This document shows positions 22,622 through 40,089 of a stretch of 64,000 nucleotides of DNA, one piece after another (position 1 is the stretch's first letter; each line of letters opens with the position of its first letter). The notes below the pieces were generated by a model, which saw nothing but the letters and a program-made list of their open reading frames with translations, searched no databases and was not told the origin of the DNA. The translations under genes and the position numbers were made by a program. The stretch is from Alphaproteobacteria bacterium (GTDB taxonomy: Bacteria > Pseudomonadota > Alphaproteobacteria > CAAHEQ01 > UBA3637): assembly GCA_017958225.1 (NCBI GenBank), contig JAGDDD010000013.1, positions 31,863 to 95,862 of the forward strand, given 5' to 3'.

Positions 22622-22840
22622 AAAAGCCTCCTTACTATATTGCGGAACACTTTCAGTTTAGACAACAAAGGCCCTGTTGTCAAGGATTACATTTTTTTCT
22701 TGACTTTTGATGTGTATCGGGTATAATGAGCGCACTTGATAGCTCCTTGTCCGCCATTTGCGGACTATGCCACGGGCCGGGTTTTCATGGTGAAAGCTTT
22801 GGTTTTAACAAGTGGCCGAGATATCCATAAGGGGAATAAA

Positions 22841-24271: not shown

Positions 24272-24362
24272 GGATGGGTGGCCGAGCGGTTGAAGGCGCA
24301 CGCCTGGAAAGTGTGTTTAGGTCTAAAGCCTAACGCGAGTTCGAATCTCGCCCCATCCGCCA
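24272..24362 (+). tRNA. tRNA-Ser (anticodon GGA), long variable arm, encoded CCA
   Basis: GGATGGG acceptor stem with complementary CCCATCC-G-CCA. Anticodon stem CACGC/GTGTG with loop CTGGAAA. Long extra arm, and a T-arm GGTTCGAATCC-like (GAGTTCGAATCTCG). Confidence 0.9.
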
Positions 24363-24367
24363 TTTAG

Positions 24368-24398
24368 CAAAAACAGCTCCTAATGGGGCTGTTTTTTT
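24368..24398 (+). terminator. Intrinsic terminator after tRNA-Ser (AAAAACAGCTCCtaatGGGGCTGTTTTTTT)
   Basis: Hairpin plus T-run 6 nt after the tRNA 3' end. Confidence 0.5.
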
Positions 24399-24403
24399 AT
24401 GCC

Positions 24404-24444
24404 TAATAAAATTGTATAGACAAAATAATTTTTATGATTACAAT
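24404..24444 (+). promoter_or_regulatory. Conserved palindromic promoter/operator element, copy 1 (TAATAAAATTGTATAGACAAAATAATTTTTATGATTACAAT)
   Basis: One of three near-identical 40-41-bp elements (24404, 27463, 29035). Half-sites TAGACA/TGTCTA double as -35 TAGACA and -10 TACAAT with a 16-nt spacer. Confidence 0.5.
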
Positions 24445-24462
24445 GACGGATGGAGAGAGTCA

Positions 24463-26580
24463 TTGAAATACGGACGCGCTTTTGTGAAATTATGTCTGGT
24501 CCTGATCCTGTGCCTAGGATTGGGCGCATCAGTGGCGTATGCTCAAAACCAGAAGACCACGCCGGCGCCAACGACCTTGCAATGTGGCGCGAGGGACGCA
24601 TGCCGGCCGGCCATGGAGGCCTGGTGTTATCAAAACAAGACGATATTGGATCGATATCTGACCGGTAAGATTTTAAAAAGACCGCCTTCTGTGTGGCGTA
24701 AAATTGCTAGTTTTGTTTTTCTAAATTCCTCTCTTGGCGGTTTGACTTATAAATACATTATCTCGCGCCTCGTCGAAGTCGATGTGACCACGGACGAATA
24801 TTACCGGTATTTGGATCAGGTCAATTGTCAACAACAGTTTTGTTGTTTTGCTTTGGGCGTGGATAAAGGCCTGTTGAAAGATTTTTGGGACATATGGCAT
24901 GGCTCGGACATTGAGGATTTGGATAATGCTTATAATCCGGTGTGGGAGCTGACTAAATCCAAAGACTATTTGTCTAGGGAAGGATTCACGCAGGGATATG
25001 AAGATCAAATCAAGAAAGATATTGACGGACTGGATGTGCCCGAGAATATCAGAAAAGCCTTGAAAAAAGGCGTCGATAAAGGGTGGTCGCCTTATCAAAC
25101 TTTGGCTGCCATGACTTCAGAGATGTTGGAACGCTACAAAGGCTCCGGCATTACTAAACAACTTTGGAACTTTGTCAAACATTCGTTTGGATCGGCCTGG
25201 GAAAGCGTCGTCAATTCGCTGCGAAAATCCGAATTCGCTGAAGCGGAAAAAAACGGAAATGTGCTGGAATGCCCCTATATTTTGCAGGGCATTTTTGATC
25301 AGGTCCACACCAGCGTTGATTGTTGGTTGTGTCCTTTGTTGGAAGACATTTTTGTTTCCGGCAACGCGTTTGCCTCGGCGTTATACACGCAAATCAGCAA
25401 AGCGATGCTGGCGTTGCTGGGCGTGTTTGCCGCTCTGACAATTATGTGGATGGTTTTCCGCGTCTTAGCAGACTTTTCCGGCAAAGAGTCGCGCGCCTTT
25501 ATCAAAAAAACTTTCTTTTTATGTTTGCGCGTGGCGATTATTGCCGTGATTTTAGTGCAATCGCCCAAAGTCGTCGGAGATTTGTTCTTTACGCCATTTG
25601 TGCATTTAAGCACAGGTCTTGGGATGGAGGTGATGGCGGGCACGCAGTTGGAGGTCAATCACGCGCATCTCAACTATTTCAAAGAAAACTTTAATAACGA
25701 AGATAGCGTTATGGGCTGCACACATTCGCACCCCGATATTTGGTCGAATGAGCAAAAGTTGATGTTTTCAAAGACAACCTGTAATACTTTGGTTGGCTTG
25801 GTGCAACTTATGTCTATTGAAATAGCAACGCCCTTCCACTATGGCCAGACACTTATGTCTTACGCCTTTAGCCACGGTCGGCCATCGGAAATTATGCCGA
25901 AATTTAAACTCTTTTTCACCGGCCTGGTGATTGTGATTATTTTTGTCGTGCTGTTGGTGGCTATTCCGTTTAAGATTGTGGATATTTTTGTGCAGTTGGT
26001 CGCTTTGTGCGCCTTAAGCCCGTTGGCCATTACGTTGTTTGCGTTCCCCGCGACTCGTTCGTATACAAAGGGTGTGTGGAAGATGTTCACCAGCTGCCTG
26101 TTGCAATTGGTGATGGTGTCATTGATGGTCGCGCTGGCCGTGGCTTTCTTTACCGGCAAGACGGATGATGAGACGTTAGCGCTGTTTCTACAAAATCGCA
26201 ATGACGAGGCCTATCAACGCATTGGATTAGGCAGTATGTCCTTTTTGGGTTTGATTGCGTTGGGCTATGTCGCATATAAGTTGCTGAACAGAGCGGTTGA
26301 GTTCGCCGAGCAATTAGGCAGTGCGGTCAAATTGGCTATGTTTGAGCCGATGACCCGGGCGACGGCCGCCACGACGGCTAAGGTTGCGGGAGAGTTCACG
26401 GGCGCTGTTGCTGGTCCAACCATAGACAAAGGCAAAGACTGGGCCAAAAAGCAGGTGGATAAAGGCACAGCCGCCTTGAAACGCCCTGTCAGAAGAGGGC
26501 TACGCAACGGCGCTTATGTTGTCGTCAAAAGCGCCTATCAATTTAAAGATAAATTTAAAGAGTGGCTTAAATCGATATAA
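24463..26580 (+). CDS. Paralog 1 of a 5-member tandem family of large polytopic membrane proteins (putatively VirB6/TrbL-like). Signal peptide and Cys-rich periplasmic N-domain
   Basis: The N-terminus KYGRAFVKLCLVL... is conserved with paralogs 2 and 3. Motifs C..C.P.MEAWC.QN, DCWLCPLLE, MGCTH...TCNTLVGLVQ, VPFKVVDIFVQL and LFAFPATR.YT are shared. The TTG at 24463 follows GGAGAGAG; the ORF-track start at 24412 lies inside the promoter palindrome. The family assignment is tentative. Confidence 0.5.
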   Translation: MKYGRAFVKLCLVLILCLGLGASVAYAQNQKTTPAPTTLQCGARDACRPAMEAWCYQNKTILDRYLTGKILKRPPSVWRKIASFVFLNSSLGGLTYKYIISRLVEVDVTTDEYYRYLDQVNCQQQFCCFALGVDKGLLKDFWDIWHGSDIEDLDNAYNPVWELTKSKDYLSREGFTQGYEDQIKKDIDGLDVPENIRKALKKGVDKGWSPYQTLAAMTSEMLERYKGSGITKQLWNFVKHSFGSAWESVVNSLRKSEFAEAEKNGNVLECPYILQGIFDQVHTSVDCWLCPLLEDIFVSGNAFASALYTQISKAMLALLGVFAALTIMWMVFRVLADFSGKESRAFIKKTFFLCLRVAIIAVILVQSPKVVGDLFFTPFVHLSTGLGMEVMAGTQLEVNHAHLNYFKENFNNEDSVMGCTHSHPDIWSNEQKLMFSKTTCNTLVGLVQLMSIEIATPFHYGQTLMSYAFSHGRPSEIMPKFKLFFTGLVIVIIFVVLLVAIPFKIVDIFVQLVALCALSPLAITLFAFPATRSYTKGVWKMFTSCLLQLVMVSLMVALAVAFFTGKTDDETLALFLQNRNDEAYQRIGLGSMSFLGLIALGYVAYKLLNRAVEFAEQLGSAVKLAMFEPMTRATAATTAKVAGEFTGAVAGPTIDKGKDWAKKQVDKGTAALKRPVRRGLRNGAYVVVKSAYQFKDKFKEWLKSI

Positions 26581-26588
26581 TTCCGACG

Positions 26589-26819
26589 TTAAGTGTGTGT
26601 GCGATTTTGCGTGGTTGGTGTGGGCGCCGCGTTTTCGTTGATCTGTTCCTGTGGAGAAGGTTGCGCTGTTTTACTGCGCTCGTCCAGCGCTTGTGTCATC
26701 TGTCCTGCCGAAGATTCTTTGAAGCTGGCGATTTGTTTTATTACGTTGGGCACTTCCTTACACAATGTGTTTCGTCGAGCACCAAGGTTCTCTCCTATCT
26801 TTTCCAAATTGTCGCTCAT
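26589..26819 (-). CDS. Hypothetical small protein (76 aa)
   Basis: ORF with an RBS-like context, convergent with paralog 1. No family recognised. Confidence 0.35.
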   Translation of the reverse strand: MSDNLEKIGENLGARRNTLCKEVPNVIKQIASFKESSAGQMTQALDERSKTAQPSPQEQINENAAPTPTTQNRTHT

Positions 26820-26828
26820 AATGTCTCC

Positions 26829-27446
26829 TTATATTGTTAAATTTTTTAAAAATTGGGCCAGTTCATCGTTCCACCGCTTGCCTTTGTCCGCGCTGATAAT
26901 GGTTTTGCCTTTCTCATCTGTTGTTATAATTGGCGAAAAATAAGCCGGAGTCGTTGTCAGCAATTCCCAGGCCTTGTCAGGTTGATGGGCGGCCATATTG
27001 ATATAGTTCAGCAACAGGGCGTGCGCATCCACCGGGAACTTGGCCGCTTTGATTTTTTCTTCACAAGCGGCGATAATGGCATCACGATCGGCCAGATAAT
27101 TGTTGAGTTGCTTGAGGGCTTGTTTGCCTTCGGCCAATAATGTGCCATCCAGGCGCGGGCGTTTCGTTGGGTCCATCAAACCAATCACTTCCCCCAAAAG
27201 CAAACGCCAAAAGGATGTCGGCGACGGATATTTTTTATCCAGGCTGGCGGCCATGGCTTCCGGATTTGGGTCTTCCACTTCCAACAGAGAACAGGCGGTA
27301 TCCACCAAATCCTGCATCATTACCTCTTCGTCCGGGTCTTGTTCCACCTCTTCCAGGGTTAAACTGAAATCGGGGGGTGGCTCAATGAGGTCTTGATTTT
27401 CCCACAAAGCCTTGTATAAGCTGGTAATAAGTTCTGTTTGCGCCAT
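26829..27446 (-). CDS. Hypothetical acidic protein (~205 aa from MAQTELITSLYK...)
   Basis: The ATG at 27446 follows AAGGA. Divergently transcribed from the paralog 2 promoter/operator. Confidence 0.5.
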   Translation of the reverse strand: MAQTELITSLYKALWENQDLIEPPPDFSLTLEEVEQDPDEEVMMQDLVDTACSLLEVEDPNPEAMAASLDKKYPSPTSFWRLLLGEVIGLMDPTKRPRLDGTLLAEGKQALKQLNNYLADRDAIIAACEEKIKAAKFPVDAHALLLNYINMAAHQPDKAWELLTTTPAYFSPIITTDEKGKTIISADKGKRWNDELAQFLKNLTI

Positions 27447-27462
27447 GGTCTTTCGTCCTTCT

Positions 27463-27502
27463 TTATAAAATAGTATAGACAAAAAAATTTTTATGTCTAC
27501 AA
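27463..27502 (+). promoter_or_regulatory. Conserved palindromic promoter/operator element, copy 2 (TATAAAATAGTATAGACAAAAAAATTTTTATGTCTACAAT)
   Basis: See copy 1. Lies between divergent genes. Confidence 0.5.
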
Positions 27503-27527
27503 TAAAAATGTTTGGAGAAATAAATCG

Positions 27528-29021
27528 ATGCGCAAGTATGCCTTTTTCAAAATATGTGTTGTAGCGCTTTCCGGGCTCATGCTGGCCCTGTGTGCTTCGC
27601 CTGCGCAGGCCGAGGAGACGTCCTGGTGCCCCAAAAGATCCACATGTAATCCAGTTATGGAGGCGTGGTGTCGGCAAAACGCAGAGATATTGAAAACCGC
27701 TGCCGATGAAGGTAAGAAGTATGTTTATCACGATGTGCAATGTGATAAGGCCGGGTGTTGTGTTGAACCGTTAGAGAAAACCGGACCTGGCGCGGGTATT
27801 GGCGGAGCTACTTATACTCAAACATATACCGTTTTCCCGGCATTTTTACAGGCGCTTGTTGATAAAAATCGTGCTAATGTGGATTGTTGGTTGTGTGGTT
27901 TGTTGGAAAGTATTTTTGTGCGCGGGGATTTATTGGCGACGCGCCTGTATACCTCCATGAGCCACATTATGTTGTTCCTTTTGGGCGTCATGACCACGGT
28001 GACGCTGTTGTGGTTTGCGTTCCGTGTATTCGTGGATTTTTCCGGTAAAGAATCGCGCGCTTTTTTACAAAAATCAACCGGCTTGTTTGCGCGCGTTGCC
28101 ATTATTGCGCTGATTTTGATTCAATCCCCCAGTTCGGTCGGTAATTTCTTTTTTGCCCCCTTTATTTCTTTGGGAACTGGGTTGGGATTGGAGATGTTGG
28201 CCGTGTCGGCCGGCGGGCAGGAAGCGTCTCATCCGCATATTACTTATTTTACGCAACACCTTTATGATGAAGATTCTATTATGGGCTGCACGCATCAGGA
28301 GCAATCATTTTGGGATAATCATCCCGATTTGTTGTTGTCCAAAGCCACATGTAATATGTTGGTAGGCTTGGTCCAGATTATTTCGATAGAAGTTACGACG
28401 CCGATTAATTTTGGAATGGCGTATATGCGATTTTCTACGAACGAGCTGAGATGGGGATTTGTTCCGCATTGGGGGCCTTTTTTCTATGGGGCTCTTATGA
28501 TTATCGCCTTTTTCTGTATTTTGATATTGGTGCCGTTTAAGGTTATTGATATTTTTGTGCAGTTGATTGTGGCGTCCTGTTTCCTGCCCTTGGCTTTGAC
28601 CTTGTTCGCTTTTCCGGCGACACGCAAATATACGCAAGCCATGTGGAAGCTGTTTTTAGCCTGTATTATTCAATTGGTTATGTTGTCGTTGATGGTGGCC
28701 TTGGCTGTGAATTTATTTGTCGGCAGTGGTGGCGCAACCAATCAAGTCGTCCTGCCCTTGTTCTTAATGGGCGAAGATGAGGAAGCGTATAAAGCTTTGG
28801 CCATGGCCGGCAATGGTATTATTGCTTCGTTGGGCGCATCTTTCATAGCGTTTTATTTGATTACGCGAGCTGCCTCGTTTGCTAAACAGTTAGGTATGAG
28901 CATCAATTTGGGAACGGGCGACGCCTTACAAGATCCGTTTATGTCCGCGACGGCGAAGACCGCAGGTACGGCGGCCGGTGGGGTAAAAACGCTGTGGGAC
29001 AAAGCGACGGGTAACATATAA
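27528..29021 (+). CDS. Paralog 2 of the tandem polytopic membrane protein family (putatively VirB6/TrbL-like), shortest member (497 aa)
   Basis: ATG with RBS GGAGAAA. Signal peptide ...LALCASPAQA. Shared motifs WCPKRSTCNPVMEAWCRQN, DCWLCGLLE, MGCTHQ, VPFKVIDIFVQL and LFAFPATRKYT. Confidence 0.5.
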   Translation: MRKYAFFKICVVALSGLMLALCASPAQAEETSWCPKRSTCNPVMEAWCRQNAEILKTAADEGKKYVYHDVQCDKAGCCVEPLEKTGPGAGIGGATYTQTYTVFPAFLQALVDKNRANVDCWLCGLLESIFVRGDLLATRLYTSMSHIMLFLLGVMTTVTLLWFAFRVFVDFSGKESRAFLQKSTGLFARVAIIALILIQSPSSVGNFFFAPFISLGTGLGLEMLAVSAGGQEASHPHITYFTQHLYDEDSIMGCTHQEQSFWDNHPDLLLSKATCNMLVGLVQIISIEVTTPINFGMAYMRFSTNELRWGFVPHWGPFFYGALMIIAFFCILILVPFKVIDIFVQLIVASCFLPLALTLFAFPATRKYTQAMWKLFLACIIQLVMLSLMVALAVNLFVGSGGATNQVVLPLFLMGEDEEAYKALAMAGNGIIASLGASFIAFYLITRAASFAKQLGMSINLGTGDALQDPFMSATAKTAGTAAGGVKTLWDKATGNI

Positions 29022-29034
29022 GTTGGCGCCCGGT

Positions 29035-29075
29035 AATAAAATTGTATAGACAAAACAATTTTTGTGTCTACAATA
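29035..29075 (+). promoter_or_regulatory. Conserved palindromic promoter/operator element, copy 3 (TAATAAAATTGTATAGACAAAACAATTTTTGTGTCTACAAT)
   Basis: Best palindrome of the three (TTGTATAGACAAAA / TTTTGTGTCTACAA). Starts 14 nt after the paralog 2 stop. Confidence 0.5.
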
Positions 29076-29093: not shown

Positions 29094-31157
29094 TTGACAT
29101 ATAGGCATGCTTTTTTGAAACTGTGCACTGTTCTGGCCCTTTGTCTGGGGCTGGGGATTTCTGCGGCTCAGGCGGACGGCAGCAAGACATTGGGCTGCCC
29201 GGCCGGATCGCGTTGTAATCCGGTAATGGAAGGTTGGTGCCGGCAAAATGAAGCTATTTTATCCAAAAAATTATCCGGCAAGACGTTGAAACCTAAAGTG
29301 CGTATGGGTAATGTGTCGACTGTGACCAATGATTTGCTCGAGGTGTATACTTACTCTTCAACGATTGATTGCCACAGCTCATTTTGTTGTTTCCATTCTA
29401 GGACTGATACACAAGCAGCGTTGATTGGGGACATATGGGACGCCCTGAAAGAAGGCGCGGCTCGCACCAATCAACAGGTTAAAGACGCCAGGAAGGGCGA
29501 ATATCTTAGGCAAATCAAAGAATATACAAAACAATTGAAAGCCACGACAAAAGCGCTCAAAGAGCTGAAAAAGAAATTGGCTGCGAAAAATCAAACGAAA
29601 CCTACTGACCTGGACATCGACGCTTTGGGCCTTTCGGATGACATGGCAAACCAACTGAAAGAACATCTTGTCCAGGGCGATGATACGATAGATGATGCGT
29701 TAGCTGTGTATAATGAACAGCTTAAAGGTCGTTGGTGGAGAACACTGAAAGAACAGATAGCGCAGTCGTTGACAGATTTTTTAACCAATCCTTTTTTGAG
29801 CGGGCCGGTTCCCTTAATCGGAACGTTGGGGAGCAACGCTTGGGATGCGTATAAAGAGAAGAAAAAAGCCCAAGAGGAAGCCAATCAGAAGGCCAACGAA
29901 GGCGACGGAGAGGGCGGGGAAGACTCCGAGCAAGCCTCTGGCGAAACGGTGGATATGCCTTACTTCCTGTTGGCTATCTTGGATAAAAATAATGCGGCGA
30001 TTGATTGTTGGTTGTGTCCTTTATTGGAAAGAATATTTGTAATCGGCGACGGGCTGGCGACGCGTCTGTATGCGGTGATGCGTGATGGTATGTTGGCGCT
30101 TGTCGGCGTGGTTACGGTCTTGGTGATGATGTGGATGATTGTCAAAGTCTTTATTGATTTTACAGGCAAATCAGCCCGATCTTTTTTACAACAACTGGCT
30201 GGCTTTTTGGCGCGGGTGCTTATCGTAGCCCTGTTGTTGGTGCAATCTCCCAGCTTTATTGGCGAATGGTTCTTGACGCCGTTGATTAATTTTAGTGTGG
30301 GCATGAGCGTGCAATTTATGTCCGGCGAAGACATGACACAGTCGGCACATATCAATTATTTTAACGAACATTTCAATAAAGAAGATAATATTATGGGCTG
30401 CATTCACAGCACAGATTTTTGGCAAACAAATGAGGACTTGCTGTTCCCGAAAACAACGTGTAATACCTTGGTCGGGTTGGTGCAACTCATCTCCATAGAA
30501 TTGTCGACGCCTATTCAATATGGTCAGGCGCTGATAGCGTATGGTTGGTCGGATTTGAAATGGTTTATTTTCCCTCGTTTCACCGACATTATTGCCGGTG
30601 CCATTATGGCGGGCTTCTTCTTTATCTTGCTGATAGTGGTGCCCTTTAAAGTGGTGGATATTTTTGCGCAATTGGCCTGCGTCGGGTGCTTGTTACCTTT
30701 GGCCATTGTGCTGTTTGCCTTCCCGACCACGCGTAAGTATACCCAAAATATGTGGCAATTGTTTGTCGCCTGTATTATTCAATTGATGGTGCTGGCGTTG
30801 ATGGCGTCCATTGTGATTGCTATGTTCACGGCTGGCATGAGTCAATCCACAAATACCTCTGTTTTAGAGTTGTTTTTGGAAGGCAAAGATAAAGCGGCGG
30901 CTGATGCTTTGAAAATGGGCGGCGTTGGTATTTTGTTCTTTATTGCCATGGCGTTGCTCGGTTGGAAATTGATTGGTCAGGCGGGCGCCTTTGCGCAGCA
31001 GTTGGGTGGCGCGCTCAATTTAGGCTTGGGTCAAGCTTTGTCCGGCGCGGTCGGTTGGGCAACCTCACGTTTAGGCTTTGTGGTCGGCGGGGCGAGCGTC
31101 TTGGGCGTCAAGTTGATGAAGAAAAAAGAAGGCGGAGGAGAAGGAGGCGGCAGCTGA
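29094..31157 (+). CDS. Paralog 3 of the tandem family, with a ~190-aa Lys-rich coiled-coil insertion in the periplasmic N-domain
   Basis: TTG start after GGAGAGG (the ORF-track GTG at 29064 is inside the operator). Motifs GCPAGSRCNPVMEGWCRQN, DCWLCPLLE, MGCIH, VPFKVVDIFAQL and LFAFPTTRKYT. C-terminal Gly/Glu-rich tail. Confidence 0.5.
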   Translation: MTYRHAFLKLCTVLALCLGLGISAAQADGSKTLGCPAGSRCNPVMEGWCRQNEAILSKKLSGKTLKPKVRMGNVSTVTNDLLEVYTYSSTIDCHSSFCCFHSRTDTQAALIGDIWDALKEGAARTNQQVKDARKGEYLRQIKEYTKQLKATTKALKELKKKLAAKNQTKPTDLDIDALGLSDDMANQLKEHLVQGDDTIDDALAVYNEQLKGRWWRTLKEQIAQSLTDFLTNPFLSGPVPLIGTLGSNAWDAYKEKKKAQEEANQKANEGDGEGGEDSEQASGETVDMPYFLLAILDKNNAAIDCWLCPLLERIFVIGDGLATRLYAVMRDGMLALVGVVTVLVMMWMIVKVFIDFTGKSARSFLQQLAGFLARVLIVALLLVQSPSFIGEWFLTPLINFSVGMSVQFMSGEDMTQSAHINYFNEHFNKEDNIMGCIHSTDFWQTNEDLLFPKTTCNTLVGLVQLISIELSTPIQYGQALIAYGWSDLKWFIFPRFTDIIAGAIMAGFFFILLIVVPFKVVDIFAQLACVGCLLPLAIVLFAFPTTRKYTQNMWQLFVACIIQLMVLALMASIVIAMFTAGMSQSTNTSVLELFLEGKDKAAADALKMGGVGILFFIAMALLGWKLIGQAGAFAQQLGGALNLGLGQALSGAVGWATSRLGFVVGGASVLGVKLMKKKEGGGEGGGS

Positions 31158-31158
31158 T

Positions 31159-33063
31159 ATGCGTAACTTTTTCCACTCCTTGAAAATATGGGTCACCACC
31201 CTGTTACTTCCCGGGCTGTTGCTGGGGTGTGCAGCGGCGAAAGTCGAAACAAGCGCCACAACAGATGAGTGTGTTTCTTGCGACTTGGCAGTGACCATTT
31301 TTGACGCCATCAATAGTTTGGCGGAAAACGTGATGCAAAATATGTGTCACATAGGTTTGGTTTTGTTGGGTATTTGTTATGCGCTGTGGTTGTTGATTGC
31401 GGTCAGCAACGGTTTGTTGAAAGGCCAACGTGTGGACCGCGACTTCTTTATTATCCAGGTGACGATGTTGGCGAAGGTGGTAGGCGTTGGGATTTTGCTG
31501 TCCAACGTCGATTTCCTGTATTACATTTGTCAGACGATTATCAATCCGTTTTTGCGTGTCTTCTTTGATTTTGCCGCCTGGATTATGCGACAAGGTGCAG
31601 AAACGTCTGGCTTGGCGACCGGCCACAATTTGCCGGCCAATCCGGCCAGAGCTTCCAATGTCTTGGATCCGTTGCTGATTGCAAGTGTGCGGACGGTTGT
31701 CTTCTATATTCAAATCTTTATCGACACCTTAAGACTTTGGGGCGCACGGTTTTACATTGAATGGCCCATTAATGCCGTGGTTGGCTGGTTGGGTCTTTTT
31801 GTGATTTTGTTAAGTTACACTATGTCGTTGGCCTTTTCGTTCCTTTTGTTGGAGCCATTCTTCCGCTTGGCGTTGTTTTTGGTGTTGATGCCGGTGTGGG
31901 CTGTGGCTTGGTGTTTTTCGGCAACACAGGGGATGGCCATAGCCGCGATGAAAAAGATTGTTGTGGCGGCCGGCCAGATGTTTTTAACCTCCATTTATTT
32001 TGCCATCTTATTTATTTTCATTGTCGCCTATACCTCGTATTTGGATATCCCGTCGCTGGCTCTATCTCATCCCATTATGTTGGCGTGGTCAGCGCAAGGC
32101 AATATCTCCGCTTGGCTATATTTCATTTCCTTCTGCCTGTTGTATTATTTCTTACAGGGGATGAATACATCCATTGGCTATGTTTTAAACGAAGATTTGA
32201 GTAGCTTTATCGGTCATGATTTCTTGAAGGGCTTGGATGGGTTGATTAAGCAAATGATTAATCTGATCAAGTTGCATGTTAAACTGGCCAAGGAAGCCCT
32301 GAAGATTGCCGCATGGACTGTGGCTACGGTTGCAACCGGCGGTGCGATGGCTGTGCCTGCCGCAACCAAGGCTACTATCAGAGCTACGCTTGCCGCGATT
32401 AAGACGACGGTTAAGACCGCTGCCAGACTCGTAGCTATGCAGACGAAACGGGTGATCAAAAGCGCCTTTACGGCGACAGGTCGCATGCTCAAGAAGGCGG
32501 CCATGTCCGTTGGCAAGACCATACAGGCTATGGGTCGGTCTGTCTGGAACGGGGTCAAGAGATTTGCGACAAAGGCCGGCATTCCCAAGATGGCCAAAAA
32601 ACTGGTATCTGCTTGGCGTATTGCCAAACAATGGACTGCCAACGGCTTCAACTGGGTGCGTTCTGCGCCGCGTAAACTGTTTGAGCGTCTGAAGAATTTC
32701 AACTTCCTCGAGTGGTTGAAAAAATTGGGCAGGAGAAGGACGCCTTCGCCCATCAAAAAAAGCTTTGTCCAAAGAATCCGCGACTTCTACAGGCGTAAAA
32801 AAGCGTCTCCTCCGCCCCCGCGGCCACGCCCGAAGACAGAAGAGAAAAAGCCTAAGCCCAAGAAGAAAAAGCCGTTGTGGAAACGCATTGCCGACAGATG
32901 GTTGAAAAACACCGGCTGGGTGGATGCGCAGGATAACGGAACTTACAGCAATATGAACGCTGTCCGAGATACGGTCAACGAAGAAGGGGAAGAGCAGCGG
33001 AGCCCGTCTCACCACGACTATACAAAGGGCGGCTCGTCTTCCGAGTCGGACGAAGGGAGTTAA
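31159..33063 (+). CDS. Paralog 4 (divergent) of the tandem family. Lipoprotein-type signal (LLGC), polytopic core, basic/Pro-rich C-terminal tail
   Basis: The core aligns by eye to the paralog 1-3 block: DECVSC...IFD...LVLLGICYALWLLIAVSNG...DRDF matches DCWLC...IFV...LLGV...MWMVFRV...SRAF. Starts 2 nt after the paralog 3 stop, consistent with an operon. Confidence 0.4.
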   Translation: MRNFFHSLKIWVTTLLLPGLLLGCAAAKVETSATTDECVSCDLAVTIFDAINSLAENVMQNMCHIGLVLLGICYALWLLIAVSNGLLKGQRVDRDFFIIQVTMLAKVVGVGILLSNVDFLYYICQTIINPFLRVFFDFAAWIMRQGAETSGLATGHNLPANPARASNVLDPLLIASVRTVVFYIQIFIDTLRLWGARFYIEWPINAVVGWLGLFVILLSYTMSLAFSFLLLEPFFRLALFLVLMPVWAVAWCFSATQGMAIAAMKKIVVAAGQMFLTSIYFAILFIFIVAYTSYLDIPSLALSHPIMLAWSAQGNISAWLYFISFCLLYYFLQGMNTSIGYVLNEDLSSFIGHDFLKGLDGLIKQMINLIKLHVKLAKEALKIAAWTVATVATGGAMAVPAATKATIRATLAAIKTTVKTAARLVAMQTKRVIKSAFTATGRMLKKAAMSVGKTIQAMGRSVWNGVKRFATKAGIPKMAKKLVSAWRIAKQWTANGFNWVRSAPRKLFERLKNFNFLEWLKKLGRRRTPSPIKKSFVQRIRDFYRRKKASPPPPRPRPKTEEKKPKPKKKKPLWKRIADRWLKNTGWVDAQDNGTYSNMNAVRDTVNEEGEEQRSPSHHDYTKGGSSSESDEGS

Positions 33064-33065: not shown

Positions 33066-34883
33066 ATGTTTAAGAAGCTGTCTTTCAAAAAGCGTTCCCT
33101 TTTATTTGTCGAGGCCGTGTTGTTGGCGTTGGTGGCCTGGGGTCTGGTTTCTCTGCCGCCCTCCTTTGTGACGGTTGCCGGGATCGTTGCTTGGTGTATG
33201 GTGGCGCTGTTGTTGATTGTGGTTATAGGCACATATTGCGTGTATAAACATCGGCATTGGTTATGTTTCCTCGGTTGTTTGTTCATCATGGCCGGCGCTG
33301 CGCACGCTGATATTGCTTATATTCAAGTTGAGCCTATGTCTGAAGGGGAAAATCAATGTCATGTCGTGGCCAAAGCCAGGACCGCTGCAGAAGGGGACAG
33401 CGAGGTGACGCAAGAACAACTAGACACCTGGATGCAAGAGGGTCTTGATATTTTCAAACCGTTCCAGTGTGACGAATGTCAGAAGCAACATGTATCATCA
33501 GAATACGAAACCAAAATGAAGCAGATGTCAGCCCAGAAAGGCCTGCTGGAAACCGAAAAGCCTTGGGATGACGAGAAGAAAAAACAGGTGTTTTTAATCG
33601 AAGCCACTTTGGCTTATTATCAACACTGTAAAATGTTTGAAGATGCTGATGGCTGCAAAACCCCGCGTCAATATGCCGAAGACGATCAAAAAGATTGTTA
33701 TACTTGTATGTTGGTTGGCTTGGCGATAACCGCCGTTGATGTCACTACTTTAATTTTTGAAGGATATGTCAGCCAGTATATGCTTGTTGTTCTGGCCTTA
33801 TGTTTTTGTTTATGGTTGATGTGGATGGTGGCGCGTTGCCTGATTGGTGTAGACGACGGGGTCACGTTTGCCGGCGCTGTTTTTGCTAAAGTTCTGTGGT
33901 TCATCCTGATTGTTTTGCTATTGCAACAGCCTGTATCGTGGGTGCTGGAAACGTTGACCGTGCCGTTTGCTCGCCTGAGCGGATGGATGGCACAAGTGAC
34001 GTCGGACGCTACCGCCTTGGGCGAAACGACGTCGCCTATTTCCACAACGGAAAGTCGGGTAGCGATGCCCAATTATTGTGCAGATAACACGCAATGGGAT
34101 AGTTCCAAATATCTGAAATATATCCCGCGGTATCAACAATCAGATAAAGATGTTTCCATCTTGGGGCCTGAAATTAAAAACGCGGTTATGTGCCCGGTAT
34201 ATAATAATTTCAAGGTTGTTGTCACTTCGTTGGCAGTAGGGCAAGCTTTAACGTGCCGTGCGCGCTATGTCAATTCGGGGACCCAGGCCGAAGACGAGGC
34301 TGACAAACATGTTTTCGCGGATGTGAATCTGATGGTAACCGGCTTGATATTGACTATTGCCAGTTATTTTATCATGTTCTTGCTACCTTATTTCATGGTG
34401 GAAGTTGTGCTGCGCATGGCGTTGTTCTTTGTGCCATTCCCGATTTGGTGTTTGGCTTTGATGTATAAGCCAACCCGTGGCTTTGCCACACGCGCATTTA
34501 CGGTGTTTGTGCATGCACTGTTGTGTTTGGTGACGTTGTCCATTGCGGCCGCCTTTATTACGGAAGCTTTTGTGACAGTGGTTACGCCGACGGCAGAAGC
34601 CGCCATCATTATCAGGAACGTGTTGAATGATCCGAAGGGCAGCGTTGAGCCGTTGGTCGAGCTGTTTAGTGTATCTAAAAACTTCAAAATGGCCATTATG
34701 TTCATTATTTTGAGTTGGTTTACGTATCGGATTTTGGCGTTGTCCGTGCTTTTTGCTGACAAGATATTAGGGGCGTCCATGGGGAGCGCGGCCTCGGCCT
34801 TTGGTGCGAGCGTGCACAAGAGCTTTATTGCTATACGTGATGCTGTGCGCAAGGCTATTACAGATGCCGCCACGCCTTCGTGA
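33066..34883 (+). CDS. Paralog 5 (divergent) of the tandem family, polytopic membrane protein
   Basis: DCYTCMLVGLA...LWLMWMVARCLIG...FAG block resembles the DCWLC...MWMVFRVLADFSG block. Starts 3 nt after the paralog 4 stop. Confidence 0.35.
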   Translation: MFKKLSFKKRSLLFVEAVLLALVAWGLVSLPPSFVTVAGIVAWCMVALLLIVVIGTYCVYKHRHWLCFLGCLFIMAGAAHADIAYIQVEPMSEGENQCHVVAKARTAAEGDSEVTQEQLDTWMQEGLDIFKPFQCDECQKQHVSSEYETKMKQMSAQKGLLETEKPWDDEKKKQVFLIEATLAYYQHCKMFEDADGCKTPRQYAEDDQKDCYTCMLVGLAITAVDVTTLIFEGYVSQYMLVVLALCFCLWLMWMVARCLIGVDDGVTFAGAVFAKVLWFILIVLLLQQPVSWVLETLTVPFARLSGWMAQVTSDATALGETTSPISTTESRVAMPNYCADNTQWDSSKYLKYIPRYQQSDKDVSILGPEIKNAVMCPVYNNFKVVVTSLAVGQALTCRARYVNSGTQAEDEADKHVFADVNLMVTGLILTIASYFIMFLLPYFMVEVVLRMALFFVPFPIWCLALMYKPTRGFATRAFTVFVHALLCLVTLSIAAAFITEAFVTVVTPTAEAAIIIRNVLNDPKGSVEPLVELFSVSKNFKMAIMFIILSWFTYRILALSVLFADKILGASMGSAASAFGASVHKSFIAIRDAVRKAITDAATPS

Positions 34884-34920
34884 TGCTTGTTTGGCCAGAG
34901 AAAATCTTATTTTTAAAAAA

Positions 34921-34950
34921 ATAGACAATTTTTGTTGTTTTTTTGTCTAT
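34921..34950 (+). promoter_or_regulatory. Related operator variant ATAGACAA-N14-TTGTCTAT (perfect 8-bp arms) upstream of the XRE regulator gene, followed by a TATAAAAT -10-like box
   Basis: Same TAGACA/TGTCTA half-sites as copies 1-3, but with a longer spacer. Confidence 0.45.
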
Positions 34951-34997
34951 TTTTGTGGTATAAAATCTGATATAAAAGTAAGGGTAAGGAGTTTTTT

Positions 34998-35957
34998 ATG
35001 GAAGAGATCGTATTTCCCAATCAGATTCGTATGTTAAGACGCATGCGCGGTAAGACCATGAAGTCGTTGGCAGATGAGCTGGGCGTCAGTTTGTCGGCTG
35101 TCAGTAAAATTGAAAAAGGCTATCGCGCCATTAACGAACAACAACTGCAACGCATTGTGACTTTTTTGGATTGCCCGAAAGAGAGCGTGTTTGTTTATGA
35201 AACGACATCGCAGCCGGAAGTTGTCCATTCGTGGAAAAAAGAACAGGAGCGTCGCAAACAAATCAACGAGACCAGCGGTCTGAAAACCTTAGGTGCCGGC
35301 TTGCGTTATTTGCGCGGGCAAAAACGTTTGACGTTGCAGGATGTGGCGCGTGGTGCGCGGATGACCTTGTCGGTTTATCATCGCATAGAAATGGGGCAGC
35401 GCGAGGTGGATGAGACGCAGTTACAGCGAATCGCGCATGCTTTGGGACTGAGCACAGAAGCTTTGCAAATGCAGGTGTATGAATTGGATATGGCTGGCGC
35501 GTTAAAGGCCTTTAAGAAGGGGGATAAACCAGGCATTTTTCACTCTAAAGGCGGTTACAATGACCTGCCCATGAATGAGAAACTGTTATACACGCCCAAG
35601 ATTGCGTTGGTGGGACAGGAAGACGGACAGGGCGTCTTGACGGTGGATGCGGACCATCCGGTGGATATGTTGGAAGCCGAGTTTTTACACATCCCCGCGT
35701 TGTATGCGTTGGTGGTGTCGGCACGTCGGTTGAGTTTGCCCGGCAAGCGCGTGATGTTATTTGTGGATAAAAGTTTGACGCCCGCTGTGGGAGATGTGGC
35801 GGTCGTCGAAGTGAGTGAAAAACAGGTAGAGGTTGGCTATTTGCGTCAAAAGGGAGAGGCTTTTTGTTTGGAAAATTGTGCGACGAATACGCCGTATGAC
35901 GTATCGCCCGAACAACTGAAAACGGCGCATAAAGTTACCTATATTCATTTCTTGTGA
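34998..35957 (+). CDS. Dual helix-turn-helix XRE-family transcriptional regulator (two HTH_XRE domains plus a ~120-aa C-terminal domain)
   Basis: Two copies of the XRE HTH pattern (LRRMRGKTMKSLADELGVSLSAVSKIEKG and LRYLRGQKRLTLQDVARGARMTLSVYHRIEMG). RBS AAGGAG before the ATG. Confidence 0.7.
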   Translation: MEEIVFPNQIRMLRRMRGKTMKSLADELGVSLSAVSKIEKGYRAINEQQLQRIVTFLDCPKESVFVYETTSQPEVVHSWKKEQERRKQINETSGLKTLGAGLRYLRGQKRLTLQDVARGARMTLSVYHRIEMGQREVDETQLQRIAHALGLSTEALQMQVYELDMAGALKAFKKGDKPGIFHSKGGYNDLPMNEKLLYTPKIALVGQEDGQGVLTVDADHPVDMLEAEFLHIPALYALVVSARRLSLPGKRVMLFVDKSLTPAVGDVAVVEVSEKQVEVGYLRQKGEAFCLENCATNTPYDVSPEQLKTAHKVTYIHFL

Positions 35958-35965
35958 GGTTGATT

Positions 35966-36835
35966 ATGGTTTATACAATCAGAGATTGGCAGAAAGCAAA
36001 GCAGAAAAAAGAAGGCGACGAAACCCCGATTGCGGTGGCGCGTCGGCTGATGAATCTGTTCCGCCAAATGGCGCATTTGGACGATCACTCTATGGAGCAA
36101 TTTAACCAAATGCTGTTGGCCGCGGATGCGGAAGCACTGACCGCTTTGAACTCAATTCCCGGCGGTAATGAATTACACGAATATCGCACTTATTTGCGCA
36201 ATAAAGCAGCAGGGGCTAATGCTTCTGGTGCGTCGGGTGCAGAGGATGCGGCGGACGAGCCGGTGGATATCACCAGCATGGAAGCTGCGTTGTTGCCGCC
36301 TGCCGAGGCTTTGTCGCCGTTGTGGAGCACATGGGGTGGCGGCGCTGTCGGCGGAGCCTCGACGGATCATGTCTTGACGGAAACAAAGATTCAATCGTTG
36401 GCCGGTGATATGTCAGCCTGCGCCGGCGAAACTTTGGCGTCTATTGAAAAGGACGCGTTGGCGCGCTATGACGATTATCAGCAAAAAATTATTCGTTTGT
36501 TGGAGTCGCTTGTCATTGATTCTGATGTGCAAAAAATGCAGACTAATTTGGCTGATACCGTTGAAAAAATCCATCGGGTTCAGGCGCAACAAAAACAAGA
36601 TTTGCAAGACAGTCAGCGTCGTAACAAGGCAGCTTTATGTGATACCATCAATCAGCGGGCTATCGCGATTTTACATGGGCAAAGTGCCAGTGCGCCGCAT
36701 ACTTTTGACGAGGTTGTGATTGAGGAAATGACCGAAGCCGATAAACCAACATCCGAACAGGTGGCTCAATTGTTGCGTCAGCAGCAAAATGACGCCCCTA
36801 AGTTTTCGGTGCAACCAGTGGGCGAGGACGAGTGA
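35966..36835 (+). CDS. Hypothetical protein (289 aa), Ala/Gln-rich, coiled-coil-like
   Basis: ATG after GAGGT. Start-stop overlap with the XRE gene suggests co-transcription. Confidence 0.45.
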   Translation: MVYTIRDWQKAKQKKEGDETPIAVARRLMNLFRQMAHLDDHSMEQFNQMLLAADAEALTALNSIPGGNELHEYRTYLRNKAAGANASGASGAEDAADEPVDITSMEAALLPPAEALSPLWSTWGGGAVGGASTDHVLTETKIQSLAGDMSACAGETLASIEKDALARYDDYQQKIIRLLESLVIDSDVQKMQTNLADTVEKIHRVQAQQKQDLQDSQRRNKAALCDTINQRAIAILHGQSASAPHTFDEVVIEEMTEADKPTSEQVAQLLRQQQNDAPKFSVQPVGEDE

Positions 36836-36896
36836 ACTTTAAGCAAATATTAACTATGACGCGATACACTATAATTCAAAGAAAAAGGAGATAGAC

Positions 36897-38402
36897 ATGG
36901 TAAATGACCCTTCTTTACAAGCAGTAATCGATGCCTTGACAATGTATCAAAATGACCTGGAGACATTGCAGGCTGTGGTCAAGGCGGCAGAAGCGTCTTT
37001 GGGGGATGATTGGATCTCTCTGTTGCCTTCCGTTTTGGACAAGGCAGAATTAGAAGCGTCTCAAAAAGATTTGCTGAAGGAACGCGCCGATCATGCTATC
37101 CACTATTATGGTGCGACAGCCGCTTATTCCGAAATTCAAGAATATTTGAAAGATCCGGCGCAATTGGATAAAACGCAAGTGGCGGCCCGGTTGCCCGTCT
37201 TGGAATATTGGATGGAGTTTTTTGGCGACGAAGGCATGAACTTGGTGCGCACTTTGAAAACAAAGTTAGAGCCGGAAGAGGCTGCGTCATCTCCGCAATG
37301 GGATGCACAAGTGGAAAAAGTGCAGCAGGAAACACAAGAGGCCGAAGAAACGCCGGCTGTTGATGAACAAATGGTCGATGAATCTAAATTATTCGACAGC
37401 CCGGAAGGCACGCCGGCCGATGCGGTGGCTCAGGCGTTTGAAAATATCTTACGTCCGGATGGTAAGGCGGAACCGGAAGAGGTGGCCGAAGAGCCGGTTG
37501 AGCCTGCTCCCGTTGCCGAAGAAGCCCCCGCAGAAGTTGCTGTTAAAGAAAGTGCTGAAGAAGTGACCCCAGAGGCTGTTGAACAACCGGCCGAAGAGCC
37601 CGCCGAACAAGTGCAAGAGATTGCCGAACCGACATCTGTAGAGACGCCTGCGGAAACTGTTGAGGCGTCCGAGGAAGTGGCGCCCGTTGAACAGGAACCG
37701 GCCGCGGAAGAAATCAGTGCCCCGGAAATTGTGGAGCCGGCCCCGCAGGATGAAGTTGCCGAAATGCAAGAGCCTGCCGCCGACGATATCCCCTTGGACA
37801 AAGATTTCCCGACGACGTTGGAAGAGGCCGAAGCGCAAGCACAAGTTGAGCCCGTCCAGCGCGAAAACACAAACAAAGACTGGGAAGTGGAAAATGTGTT
37901 GCGTGAGTGGCACTTATACGAAGATGTCTTTGCCTGGTTAAATGCGCGCTCTGTGCGTTTGAAATTGTCAGACAAGAGAAACTATCCGTATTATGGTTTC
38001 TTGGTCGATTTAATGCGCACCTTGCATGATGATGCGCAGGCTTTGTTAGATAACGCTAAATATGAGGCGGTGTTGCCGACAGCGGTTGAAGGCGGTCGGG
38101 AAGCTATCGAAAGTTTGGTGGCCGCTTTGGACAAAGAGATTCTTGATTTGGCTGACGAATATCCTGCATCCGTGGAAGAACAGTTGAATCCTAAAAAGGT
38201 AGAAGATATCTTAGGTCCGTTGGACACCGGCCCTGAAGAAGATGTCGGACCGGATCCGAATGACTTTGAGGCGATTGAAGATCCTTATGAGGCTGCCAAG
38301 AAAGAAGAAGAGGCCAAAGAGGCCGCAGAAGAGGCAGCCAAAAAAGAAGAAAAGAAGTCCTCCAAAGAGAAAAAATCGAAAAAACAGGAGTCAGACGAAT
38401 GA
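36897..38402 (+). CDS. Highly acidic Glu/Pro/Ala-rich repeat protein (501 aa) with a Lys/Glu-rich C-terminal tail
   Basis: Low-complexity repeats of the form EEPVEPAPVAEEAPAEV... RBS AAGGAG. Confidence 0.55.
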   Translation: MVNDPSLQAVIDALTMYQNDLETLQAVVKAAEASLGDDWISLLPSVLDKAELEASQKDLLKERADHAIHYYGATAAYSEIQEYLKDPAQLDKTQVAARLPVLEYWMEFFGDEGMNLVRTLKTKLEPEEAASSPQWDAQVEKVQQETQEAEETPAVDEQMVDESKLFDSPEGTPADAVAQAFENILRPDGKAEPEEVAEEPVEPAPVAEEAPAEVAVKESAEEVTPEAVEQPAEEPAEQVQEIAEPTSVETPAETVEASEEVAPVEQEPAAEEISAPEIVEPAPQDEVAEMQEPAADDIPLDKDFPTTLEEAEAQAQVEPVQRENTNKDWEVENVLREWHLYEDVFAWLNARSVRLKLSDKRNYPYYGFLVDLMRTLHDDAQALLDNAKYEAVLPTAVEGGREAIESLVAALDKEILDLADEYPASVEEQLNPKKVEDILGPLDTGPEEDVGPDPNDFEAIEDPYEAAKKEEEAKEAAEEAAKKEEKKSSKEKKSKKQESDE

Positions 38403-39523
38403 AAAAATTGCTCGCTTTGCTGATGTTGTTGAGCCTCCCCGTCGGGGCCGTCGAACTGCATGATGTTGAAATGAACAAATTAAACATCGAAAAGGCGGTG
38501 CGGTGTCAAACAAGCACGCCGGCCTTGGAAGTGGTCCAAAGCGTCGTTGTGCAGCCGGGCGAATTGGTTTTGTGGCCTGTGGGCGGCGATACTTTGCCGG
38601 CCTTTAATGTGGACAAGTTTGAAGCTTCGCAAATGCCGTTGGATGCCGTGTTGCAGGAATTGGTGGCCGAAGCCGGTATCAAAGTATGTTCGGATGACGG
38701 TGTGTTTCCCAATATTGCGGTCAAGGGCTTGGAAGGCTCGTTGCAGGATGTTGTGTGGGAAATCGCTCGTTTAGGCGATGCCTTTGTGCGTTATGACGCG
38801 GTGGAAAAGACGTTGCACGTTGCGCGTCAAGCGACTTTTGAAGTGCATATGCCGGCGGGGCGTTTAGGCATGTATGCCATCATTGACGCTTTGCGCGGTG
38901 CAAAAGTTTTTGATATGAAGCCGGATTGGAGCGAAAATGTGCTCTATCTGAATTTGAACAGTGATACCTATGCCATTACGCAAAACCTGTTAGACACCAT
39001 TCGTCAACGACCGCAATTGTTGGTTTGGGACGTGAAGTTTTATCGCTTGTCTCCGGAGATTGCGGATTGGGAGCCGATTGTTAAACAATTCGGTGCTAAA
39101 CGCGTCAATTCTTCTTTGAACGGATTGGCCGGTCGCCTGTTGATTTCTGATCATCAGAAAAAAGGTTGGACAATGGTGCAGGATTTGGAGAAAAGAGGCT
39201 CGGTCACGCCGGTGTGTGAAGGAATTGCGGTCATGCCGGCCAACTTTGATGTGCTGTTTTCTTTAGGTTTGTGCAGTGACGGGCAGGGCCGTGACCTGGT
39301 GATGAATCTCAAGGGCGAGGTCTATGATACCGATAAGATGCAGACCAAGTTCTCTGTTTCCACAAAACAAGGCGAAATCACAGCCTTTGATGCCATTTAT
39401 GACATTGATGACACTTTGGATGTGATTGACTTGCCGAATACAATTTTTGGTCCAACTGCTGCACAGGTGGAATATTTTATTACAATTAAACCCCGCCTTG
39501 TGCGGTTGATGATAAGGGAGTAA
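38399..39523 (+). CDS. Exported protein with secretin-like features (N-terminal STN/secretin_N-like segment, C-terminal ...NTIFGPTAAQVEYFITIKPRLV), tentative
   Basis: Signal peptide MKKLLALLMLLSLPVGA. By-eye resemblance to secretin N-domain and C-terminal consensus. Too short (374 aa) for a canonical secretin. Confidence 0.3.
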   Translation: MKKLLALLMLLSLPVGAVELHDVEMNKLNIEKAVRCQTSTPALEVVQSVVVQPGELVLWPVGGDTLPAFNVDKFEASQMPLDAVLQELVAEAGIKVCSDDGVFPNIAVKGLEGSLQDVVWEIARLGDAFVRYDAVEKTLHVARQATFEVHMPAGRLGMYAIIDALRGAKVFDMKPDWSENVLYLNLNSDTYAITQNLLDTIRQRPQLLVWDVKFYRLSPEIADWEPIVKQFGAKRVNSSLNGLAGRLLISDHQKKGWTMVQDLEKRGSVTPVCEGIAVMPANFDVLFSLGLCSDGQGRDLVMNLKGEVYDTDKMQTKFSVSTKQGEITAFDAIYDIDDTLDVIDLPNTIFGPTAAQVEYFITIKPRLVRLMIRE

Positions 39524-39525
39524 TT

Positions 39526-40089
39526 ATGTCGGAACAACCTCGTTTTCCTATGCCTAACAGTTCTGATTTGAATAACATGCCGGCTGCGCATGCCCCGACG
39601 ATTCCTGATGAGCCGAAAGAGGAAGTGGCTCGGGCGTGGGCTGAAGATGCCAAACCTAAAGCGGCAGAAAAAACTATGCCGGACAGCAATGTGGTCGAGG
39701 ATTTGCGCTTGCCTGTGTCTTTATTGAAAACGAAAGTTTTCATTGCCATGATGATTGGTATATTTGTGGTCGGCATTTTGTTTGGTGCGGCTTTGTTCGG
39801 CGGTGGCAAACAAGCGGTCGTCTCGCAAGGCTTGTCCGGTGTTGTGGAAAATCCGGACGCCGAAAAAGGCTTGCGGCGTTGTGGTTATGCGCCACGTGGC
39901 GAACGTTGCGTTTTATATGTGATGAACAATATTCGCAAAGAAATCAAAGCCCAAGAATTATTTAAGTTAGTATCTCAATTGGCCAGTGTGTCCGAGTTCT
40001 TGATTCAGACGGCCAATGTGGGTTATGCCTCGACCATTATTCGGCCGGGTTATTTTGCTCAGTTTGTGATACCTGATTTGAAAAATTAG
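39526..40089 (+). CDS. Hypothetical single-TM protein with a Pro-rich N-terminus (187 aa)
   Basis: Starts 3 nt after the upstream stop. One hydrophobic helix (VFIAMMIGIFVVGILFGAALFGG). Confidence 0.45.
   Translation: MSEQPRFPMPNSSDLNNMPAAHAPTIPDEPKEEVARAWAEDAKPKAAEKTMPDSNVVEDLRLPVSLLKTKVFIAMMIGIFVVGILFGAALFGGGKQAVVSQGLSGVVENPDAEKGLRRCGYAPRGERCVLYVMNNIRKEIKAQELFKLVSQLASVSEFLIQTANVGYASTIIRPGYFAQFVIPDLKN

Follow-up and report, generated by a model that had tools for sequence, protein, structure and literature searches.

Divergent bacterial genes can be served by two opposed sigma-70-type promoters that share the same stretch of about 40 bp, as at tetA/tetR of Tn10 and at bioA/bioBFCD of Escherichia coli, where a dyad operator of about 40 bp is bound by BirA. 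In such an arrangement the sequence forms a dyad, and one bound protein could silence both promoters. Symmetrical bidirectional promoters have also been described by the Grainger and Wade groups as pseudo-symmetrical sequences which RNA polymerase can occupy in either orientation, the two bindings being mutually exclusive; these promoters have one common −10 element, and their divergent starts typically lie 18, but also 10 or 23, bp apart (Warman et al.; PMC12825309; bioRxiv 10.1101/2020.01.31.928960). Here we have analysed a stretch of 64,000 nucleotides (nt) from an uncultured alphaproteobacterium (assembly GCA_017958225.1, contig JAGDDD010000013.1, positions 31,863 to 95,862; the whole stretch is called the window below), in which a 41-nt element stands in front of three genes of a TrbL/VirB6-like array, a tandem set of five polytopic proteins. 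We consider it reasonably probable that this element is a two-way promoter cassette that was duplicated into one-way contexts, which would explain both the repeat and its dyad symmetry.

The repeat search of the window recovered the element as a single family of three copies with 88–90% identity (Table 1). Three copies of about 40 bp had been reported in the first-pass annotation, and these stand, although its coordinates for copies 2 and 3 were off by one. In the same search the coding repeats of the paralog units were only 64–82% identical, and the proteins of paralogs 1, 2 and 3, which lie behind the cassettes, are 40–46% identical; the non-coding cassette is the best-conserved DNA of the paralog repeat unit. 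Each copy would be a sigma-70-type promoter composed of an A/T-rich upstream tract, a −35 hexamer TAGACA, a 16-nt spacer and a −10 hexamer TACAAT, in agreement with the −35-like and −10-like hexamers pointed out earlier. This combination scores 10/12 in the promoter scan at every copy, with a spacing inside the 16–18 nt range of such promoters, and each copy lies immediately 5′ of a transcription unit, the end of the −10 hexamer being 18–24 nt from the start codon with a GGAG in between. The two hexamers, their spacing and their position 8–25 nt 5′ of the Shine–Dalgarno (SD) sequence and start codon are invariant in 11 orthologous cassettes, and the hexamers are also kept in nine more distant species. 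Since rpsF, a housekeeping gene of the same window, has a canonical TTGACT-17-TATAAT promoter, TAGACA is not merely the usual −35 of this organism. We thus take the cassettes to be promoters, which would fire rightward into paralog 1, paralog 2 and the paralog 3-4-5 unit, with predicted starts near 24451, 27510 and 29081. The rpsF region (22661-22729) also contains an unrelated inverted repeat, GACAACA-N7-TGTTGTC, ahead of its promoter.

A short A/T-rich palindrome found in several copies could also be a generic dispersed repeat (a repetitive extragenic palindromic sequence, a miniature inverted-repeat transposable element or similar) lying beside genes by chance, an outcome that the first-pass annotation had named as fatal to its proposal. 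This origin is excluded by the copy distribution, and we give it almost no credence. Such repeats occur in many copies with no fixed relation to genes, whereas the element is found in the window only at the three gene starts, with GTATAGACAAAA confined to the three cassettes, and the full cassette recurs in 1.5 Mb of related loci only at orthologous gene starts. Its orientation and its distance to the SD sequence and start codon are fixed. An exact-pattern scan of a metagenome collection returned no matches, a result to be read in the light of the close relatives being in ENA rather than JGI assemblies. Single TAGACA-type −35 boxes do precede a few other genes in the 1.5 Mb of related loci.

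The pattern TAGACA-N10..20-TGTCTA occurs at three sites in the 64 kb (27476, 29047 and 34922) against 0.01 expected. When ATAGAC/GTCTAT dyads are sought loosely (at most two mismatches, gap 8–20 nt), the 33 window matches are within the 18–36 obtained from shuffled sequences, and the sole dyad with at most one mismatch besides the cassettes and the site at 34921 is at 40224, with a gap of 8 nt. The palindrome had been ascribed to all three cassettes; it is present in copies 2 and 3, with a gap of 12 nt between the hexamers, but copy 1 is non-palindromic, its right half reading TGATTA (24435-24440) instead of TGTCTA.

The dyad symmetry would have originated in copy 2, which occupies the ancestral position between divergent genes and appears to hold two wholly overlapping opposed promoters: the ATG codons at 27446 and 27528 enclose one site on the plus strand (27476-27503) and one on the minus strand (27499-27472). 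On the minus strand, TAGACA-16-TATACT again scores 10/12 in the promoter scan and is aimed at a gene for a 206-amino-acid (aa) protein starting at ATG 27446, with a predicted leftward start near 27465. Each arm, GTC followed by TA(T/C)A(A/C)T, would serve as a −10 element in one direction, while the other strand of the same arm would supply the TAGAC of the opposite −35; the A by which TAGACA departs from the consensus is paired with the −12 T of the opposite −10 hexamer. This overlapping divergent layout recurs in nine distant species and three close lineages. As in the promoters of Warman et al., the sequence is pseudo-symmetrical and polymerase could bind it either way; however, copy 2 does not share a −10 element, the two −10 hexamers (27472-27477 and 27498-27503) having start positions 26 nt apart, and the predicted transcription starts are about 45 bp apart. 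The architecture of copy 2 therefore groups with the classical overlapping divergent promoters. It differs from those of Tn10 tetA/tetR and bioA/bioBFCD in that the promoter hexamers alone can make the symmetry, since each −35 abuts the −10 of the other promoter, in that the cassette has also been duplicated to sites with one useful direction, and in that a binding protein is only putative.

The three-cassette layout is common to four close lineages (the window, L088/L090, L091/L092 and L093), whose paralog 2 proteins are 59–67% identical. From these, 11 cassettes could be aligned, three at P1, four at P2 and four at P3, the sites in front of paralogs 1, 2 and 3. Both AAAAT-N-GTATAGACAAAA and TACAAT are invariant in all 11, and the sequence just outside cannot be aligned. 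The right-arm GTCTA behaves differently: it is intact without variants in 4/4 lineages at P2, where a leftward gene is present, while at the sites with no leftward gene it is intact in 3/4 lineages at P3 (GCCTA in L088) and in 0/3 at P1 (GATTA or GTTTA). Because strict conservation of the right-arm GTC is confined to the site at which a leftward gene requires it for its −35, the dyad would be mainly a matter of promoter symmetry. The intergenic DNA at P2 is 82–95% identical among the lineages, compared with 67–70% for the paralog 2 coding sequence. Copies 1 and 3 would be lineage-specific duplicates that moved together with the 5′ ends of the long-form paralogs; both P1 and P3 go with long-form proteins that resemble each other at the N-terminus and start with TTG, and both have AAAATTG as their cassette variant, which suggests that they are duplicates of each other with the promoter carried along. 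Since these two copies would act one way, their right-arm GTC would be free to decay, and in copy 1 it has been lost.

More distant relatives were reached through the regulator gene at the 3′ end of the array, which encodes a protein with two helix-turn-helix (HTH) domains: a genome contig scan with the paralog alignment found no relatives, and rescanning with the regulator alignment gave 80 loci. The gene order is kept as the 206-aa gene (minus strand), the array, the regulator gene and four further genes; in all recovered loci the regulator gene follows the 3′ end of the array, and in 37 loci the 206-aa gene is divergent to it. In nine distant species, whose regulators are 51–57% identical over the full length (74–76% over the N-terminal HTH half where only that part aligns), there is a single array promoter, always in the divergent gap beside the 206-aa homolog. 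This site, ATTATAGAC-N15-GTCTATAAT, has the form (T/A)ATAGAC-N15-GTCTATA(A/C)T with a hexamer gap of 13 nt, and it reads as two fully overlapping opposed promoters, TAGACG-17-TATAAT rightward and TAGACT-17-TAnnnT leftward (TATAAT, TATACT, TATATT or TATTAT). The spacer between the arms is not symmetrical in these species.

Variants of the layout were seen elsewhere among the relatives. A second clade has the box of the regulator promoter (described below) together with an array promoter that has no TAGAC-GTCTA dyad. In a more distant clade (L040, L041, L060 and L017), the interval from the 206-aa gene to the start of the array lacks this dyad and has instead a conserved AATAATC(C/T)ACAAAAAAATG upstream of TTGGTA-17-TGgTATACT. 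The TAATCCACA of this more distant clade resembles a DnaA box, and dnaA in the window is about 5 kb from the cluster (40769-42106, minus strand). A DnaA box was considered for GTATAGACA and rejected by inspection, because it agrees with TTATNCACA at 7/9 positions and the CACA core is broken. Extra minus-strand TAGACA-17-TA(A/T)A(A/C)T promoter-like sites are present in L008, L009, L010 and L012, at about 6.4–6.7 kb upstream of the regulator gene, and in L068 and L072; those of L008-L012 stand in front of a large gene that has no annotation (809 aa in L010) and neighbours the 206-aa homolog. In some relatives, the ATAGACAA-type −35 is thus reused outside the array promoter.

Several points weigh against explaining the element by promoter symmetry. 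The case for the start sites and promoters is built on conservation and on agreement with the consensus. The contrast between P2 and P3 in the right arm is not statistically firm, as each site is represented by three or four lineages. At P1 and P3, where there is no leftward gene, the whole left side AAAATTGTATAGACAAAA is invariant in 7/7 sites, including the non-consensus A and the 13 nt upstream of the −35; this exceeds the needs of a −35 hexamer and suggests that an UP element or a bound factor is involved, so that promoter symmetry would not be the whole story. Nor does promoter symmetry account for the inverted repeat, perfect over 8 bp, that precedes the regulator gene in the window, L007 and L088.

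This repeat, ATAGACAA-N14-TTGTCTAT, was matched in 0/100 shuffles, and its right arm is a widely conserved box, TTTTGTCTATTTT. The earlier description of it as a spacing variant of the cassette dyad is correct as to the half-sites, but the geometry is a different one, with a hexamer gap of 16 nt rather than 12 nt, and not a minor spacing variant. The 8-bp arms are kept in L007 and L088 with differing flanks (the gap is 15 nt in L088, and 16 nt in L007 as in the window), and the left arm is restricted to the clade of the window. The TTGTCTAT box itself, which is the shared ATAGAC box, is carried by the regulator promoter in 55/81 loci; in the form TTTTGTCTATTT(T/C)C it sits 20–22 nt upstream of a conserved TG-n-TATAA or GTGTATAGT element and is centred near −36. 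A second half-site upstream of the box is absent in 45 of the 48 distinct box-bearing regulator promoters. Two extended −10 candidates can be read from the sequence here (Table 1), and TGaTATAAA is kept in relatives as TG-n-TATAA, 20 nt past the GTCTAT box.

As RNA, the regulator-site repeat (34917-34954) forms a stem of 12 bp with a folding energy of −10.6 kcal/mol (z = −4.45), a fold that none of 200 shuffles equalled, and A and U runs flank the stem; at copies 2 and 3, by comparison, hairpin folding does not surpass that of shuffled sequences (z = −1.5 and −0.8). The repeat might thus be a hairpin that acts as a weak terminator or insulator at the end of the paralog 3-4-5 transcript, replacing the canonical terminators of relatives and reusing the GTCTAT box as its 3′ arm, and it is true that L004, L008 and L010 have clear hairpin and T-run terminators between the last paralog and the box, where the window has none. 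We nevertheless regard this as improbable. The stem is A/U-rich, with two G–C pairs only and a 14-nt loop, where an intrinsic terminator would have a G+C-rich stem ahead of its U run, and it was not called by the terminator scan. In a longer context its z falls to only −1.1, and in L007, which lacks the left A-run, just 8 bp can pair. A search for known RNA families (Rfam) in the 23–37 kb region found tRNA only.

The regulator has two Pfam HTH_3 matches, and its AlphaFold model (mean predicted local distance difference test score (pLDDT) 75.6, mostly 86–95 in the C-terminal domain) retrieved with Foldseek the full-length lambda repressor (3bdn_A, E 7.6e-6), the lambda C-terminal domain (2ho0, TMt 0.69) and LexA (3k2z, 1jhh). 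It thus has the layout of the lambda cI/LexA (peptidase S24) family, with an N-terminal HTH of the cI/Cro type and a C-terminal beta-domain of the S24 fold, and one faint Pfam S24 match is on record. In contrast to lambda cI and LexA, the HTH is duplicated in tandem, and no conserved G-x-S-M serine motif was found across 23 aligned homologs. For this reason the regulator is probably not self-cleaving, which is suggestive only; a pairwise alignment to the cI C-terminal domain, itself non-significant (E 0.8), places no Lys opposite K192 and does not cover the Ser149 region. The first ~190 residues, comprising both HTH domains and the linker, are near-invariant among homologs that are about 50% identical overall, while the C-terminal domain varies strongly. 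The homologs number more than 1,200, and uncultured Alphaproteobacteria of the gut or rumen account for all 559 tblastn-confirmed matches of the genome contig scan with the regulator alignment. Wmk, the male-killing protein of Wolbachia prophage WO, likewise has two XRE-type HTH domains in tandem in a polypeptide of about 300 aa, but is not known to have a cI/LexA-like C-terminal domain; the regulator scores 35.4 bits against the Wmk family NF047948 (NCBIfam; cut-off 300) and is not a member.

With such a neighbour, the TAGACA/TGTCTA dyad could instead be the operator of a dimer of the dual-HTH cI-like protein, maintained by selection for protein binding and not by promoter symmetry. By covering −35 and −10, the regulator would then keep both the paralog promoters and the divergent gene repressed, and it would autoregulate through 34921-34950; this can coexist with the promoter reading. 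The regulator gene keeps its place beside the array, the two cI/Cro-type HTH domains with a lambda cI/LexA-fold C-terminal domain are the architecture of a dimerising repressor, the same half-sites make the perfect inverted repeat in its own promoter region, and the dyads of copies 2 and 3 overlie −35 and −10. The candidate sites overlap promoters, as do those of lambda cI and LexA, and the box around −36 in the regulator promoter has the position expected of the promoter-proximal half of a cI-type activating site. Type IV secretion system (T4SS) genes of Rickettsiales have ErxR/EcxR-type regulators. A precedent is Tr1 of Anaplasma phagocytophilum, a cI/Cro-like HTH protein that is likewise encoded beside a paralog array and binds upstream of the duplicated T4SS virB2 genes (PMC13410764). 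Tr1 differs in having one HTH and another C-terminal domain, and it comes from Rickettsiales, as opposed to the uncultured gut-associated Alphaproteobacteria here. A literature search on RF32 gut Alphaproteobacteria and type IV secretion found no papers.

However, a palindromic operator should have its half-sites at every regulated promoter and at constant spacing, and neither was observed. Copies 2 and 3 and the site at 34921-34950 have the dyad, whereas the right half-site is lost at P1 in 3/3 lineages and altered at P3 in 1/4, while the promoter hexamers never vary. The gaps are 12 nt at the paralog sites, 13 nt in the distant species and 15 or 16 nt at the regulator site, and a shift of 3–4 bp rotates the half-sites by more than 100 degrees. 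Most box-bearing regulator promoters have a single half-site, the spacer symmetry is not kept, and the second clade combines the regulator box with a dyad-free array promoter. In a clade without the box, the recognition helices SLSA[IV]SKIEKGYR and TLSVYHRIEMGQREV are identical to those found with it, and no co-variation between HTH residues and the box was detected. An operator of this kind as the main cause of the dyad is therefore possible but doubtful, and the claim of a common operator co-regulating the three paralogs, as made in the first-pass annotation, is unproven and partly contradicted. A weaker step of the two-way promoter proposal is that a common ATAGAC(AA)-recognising factor would act over the −35 regions of the cassette promoters and of the regulator-operon promoter. 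Such a factor is plausible, the neighbouring cI/LexA-like dual-HTH protein being the obvious and best candidate, and binding by the regulator is plausible from the conserved synteny, the common ATAGAC box and the cI-like fold.

Table 1. Features of the array, its predicted promoters and the regulator operon (window coordinates)
Feature	Coordinates	Strand	Remarks
tRNA-Ser(GGA) and terminator	24272..24398	+	tRNA 24272-24362; then terminator hairpin and T-run, ~24374-24398
Cassette copy 1	24404..24444	+	−35 TAGACA 24417-24422; −10 TACAAT 24439-24444; predicted one-way promoter of paralog 1
Paralog 1	24463..26580	+	TrbL/VirB6-like; TTG start after GGAGAGAG
Leftward unit	26589..27446	-	206-aa gene 26829-27446 and 76-aa gene 26589-26819; between paralog 1 and copy 2
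Cassette copy 2	27463..27503	both	putative ancestral position, divergent intergenic region; rightward −35 27476-27481, −10 27498-27503, toward paralog 2
Copy 2 leftward promoter (predicted)	−35 TAGACA 27499-27494; −10 TATACT 27477-27472	-	toward 206-aa and 76-aa genes
Paralog 2	27528..29021	+	short form, 497 aa; ATG start
Cassette copy 3	29034..29074	+	−35 29047-29052; −10 29069-29074; predicted internal promoter of paralogs 3, 4 and 5
Paralogs 3, 4, 5	29094-31157, 31159-33063, 33066-34883	+	TTG start (paralog 3); genes abut
Inverted repeat ATAGACAA-N14-TTGTCTAT	34921..34950		upstream of regulator gene; right arm is the box TTTTGTCTATTTT
Extended −10 candidates, regulator operon	34956-34964 (TGgTATAAA); 34968-34976 (TGaTATAAA)	+	read from sequence
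Regulator-led operon	34998..40089	+	regulator 34998-35957; four further genes, in order 293, 501, 374 (secretin-like) and 187 aa

The surroundings of the cassettes are summarized in Table 1. The tRNA gene and its terminator insulate paralog 1 from upstream transcription, so that paralog 1 needs a promoter of its own. Copy 3 begins 13 nt past the stop codon of paralog 2 with no intervening terminator, and its dyad is intact in the window. Since paralogs 3, 4 and 5 abut, they probably form one transcription unit. The regulator gene overlaps the next gene and heads a five-gene unit. The TrbL/VirB6 family (PF04610, cut-off 25.9 bits) is matched by paralogs 1 (29.3 bits) and 3 (29.9 bits), paralog 5 staying under the cut-off at 22.7 bits; paralogs 2 and 4 have no Pfam match, and paralog 2 aligns with paralogs 1 and 3 at 40–46% identity. 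The products of the 206-aa and 76-aa genes were considered as regulators and rejected, having no Pfam or NCBIfam match and no obvious DNA-binding motif.

The mechanical open reading frame starts of paralogs 1 and 3, 24412 (TTG) and 29064 (GTG), do fall within the cassettes, and the proposal that the real starts are the downstream TTG codons after GGAGAG is supported: taking TTG 24463 and 29094 as starts brings the signal-peptide N-termini of paralogs 1, 2 and 3 into alignment, and orthologs retain TTG or GTG at the corrected start after GGAGAG. In an NCBI alphaproteobacterial metagenome-assembled genome, P0121 (locus tag ILP11_01705) matches paralog 2 with 100% identity. That entry (480 aa) appears to begin 17 codons downstream of ATG 27528, which has GGAGAA upstream and is backed by N-terminal homology to paralogs 1 and 3.

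The window is chromosomal and carries dnaA, polA, PPDK, glycogen phosphorylase and a coupling protein of the VirD4/TraG type (12824-14986, plus strand), which is 10 kb upstream of the array and behind a 404-aa gene of unknown family. The promoter-like site there (11560-11640) is TGgTATAAT, with no ATAGAC box; the cassette is thus not common to all secretion-related genes. The 374-aa protein of the regulator operon (38399-39523, plus strand) has a signal peptide and no Pfam or NCBIfam match. Its AlphaFold model (pLDDT 62, with residues 50-220 well predicted) resembles the secretins BfpB (E 1.7e-8) and PilQ (E 4.9e-8) and also matches InvG and the N-domains of GspD/XcpQ. Judging from this model, the secretin-like gene beside a TrbL/VirB6-like array is an unusual pairing and may belong to an undescribed envelope machine.

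A bolder picture, which we hold to be speculative and rather unlikely as a whole, is that a non-cleavable lambda-cI-like repressor with duplicated HTH runs a local switch through ATAGAC boxes over −35. It would shut the two-way array promoter and the internal copies and control its own operon from the box near −36, paralog 1 having escaped full control by losing a half-site. The machine so controlled would be an undescribed envelope system with multiple VirB6-like proteins and a secretin-like channel, conserved in hundreds of uncultured gut Alphaproteobacteria. The cI-like dual-HTH protein is very widespread, with more than 550 tblastn-confirmed matches in the genome collection.

Taken together, the cassette belongs to an ordinary class of elements, but its configuration is neat and informative. 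For the five-gene TrbL/VirB6-like array of this uncultured lineage, the analysis provides a concrete operon map with two corrected starts and four defined promoter regions. It also cautions that a palindrome overlapping a promoter need not be an operator. The favoured explanation would make the locus a natural experiment in promoter duplication, in which a two-way promoter placed in one-way contexts keeps the half that is needed and loses the other.

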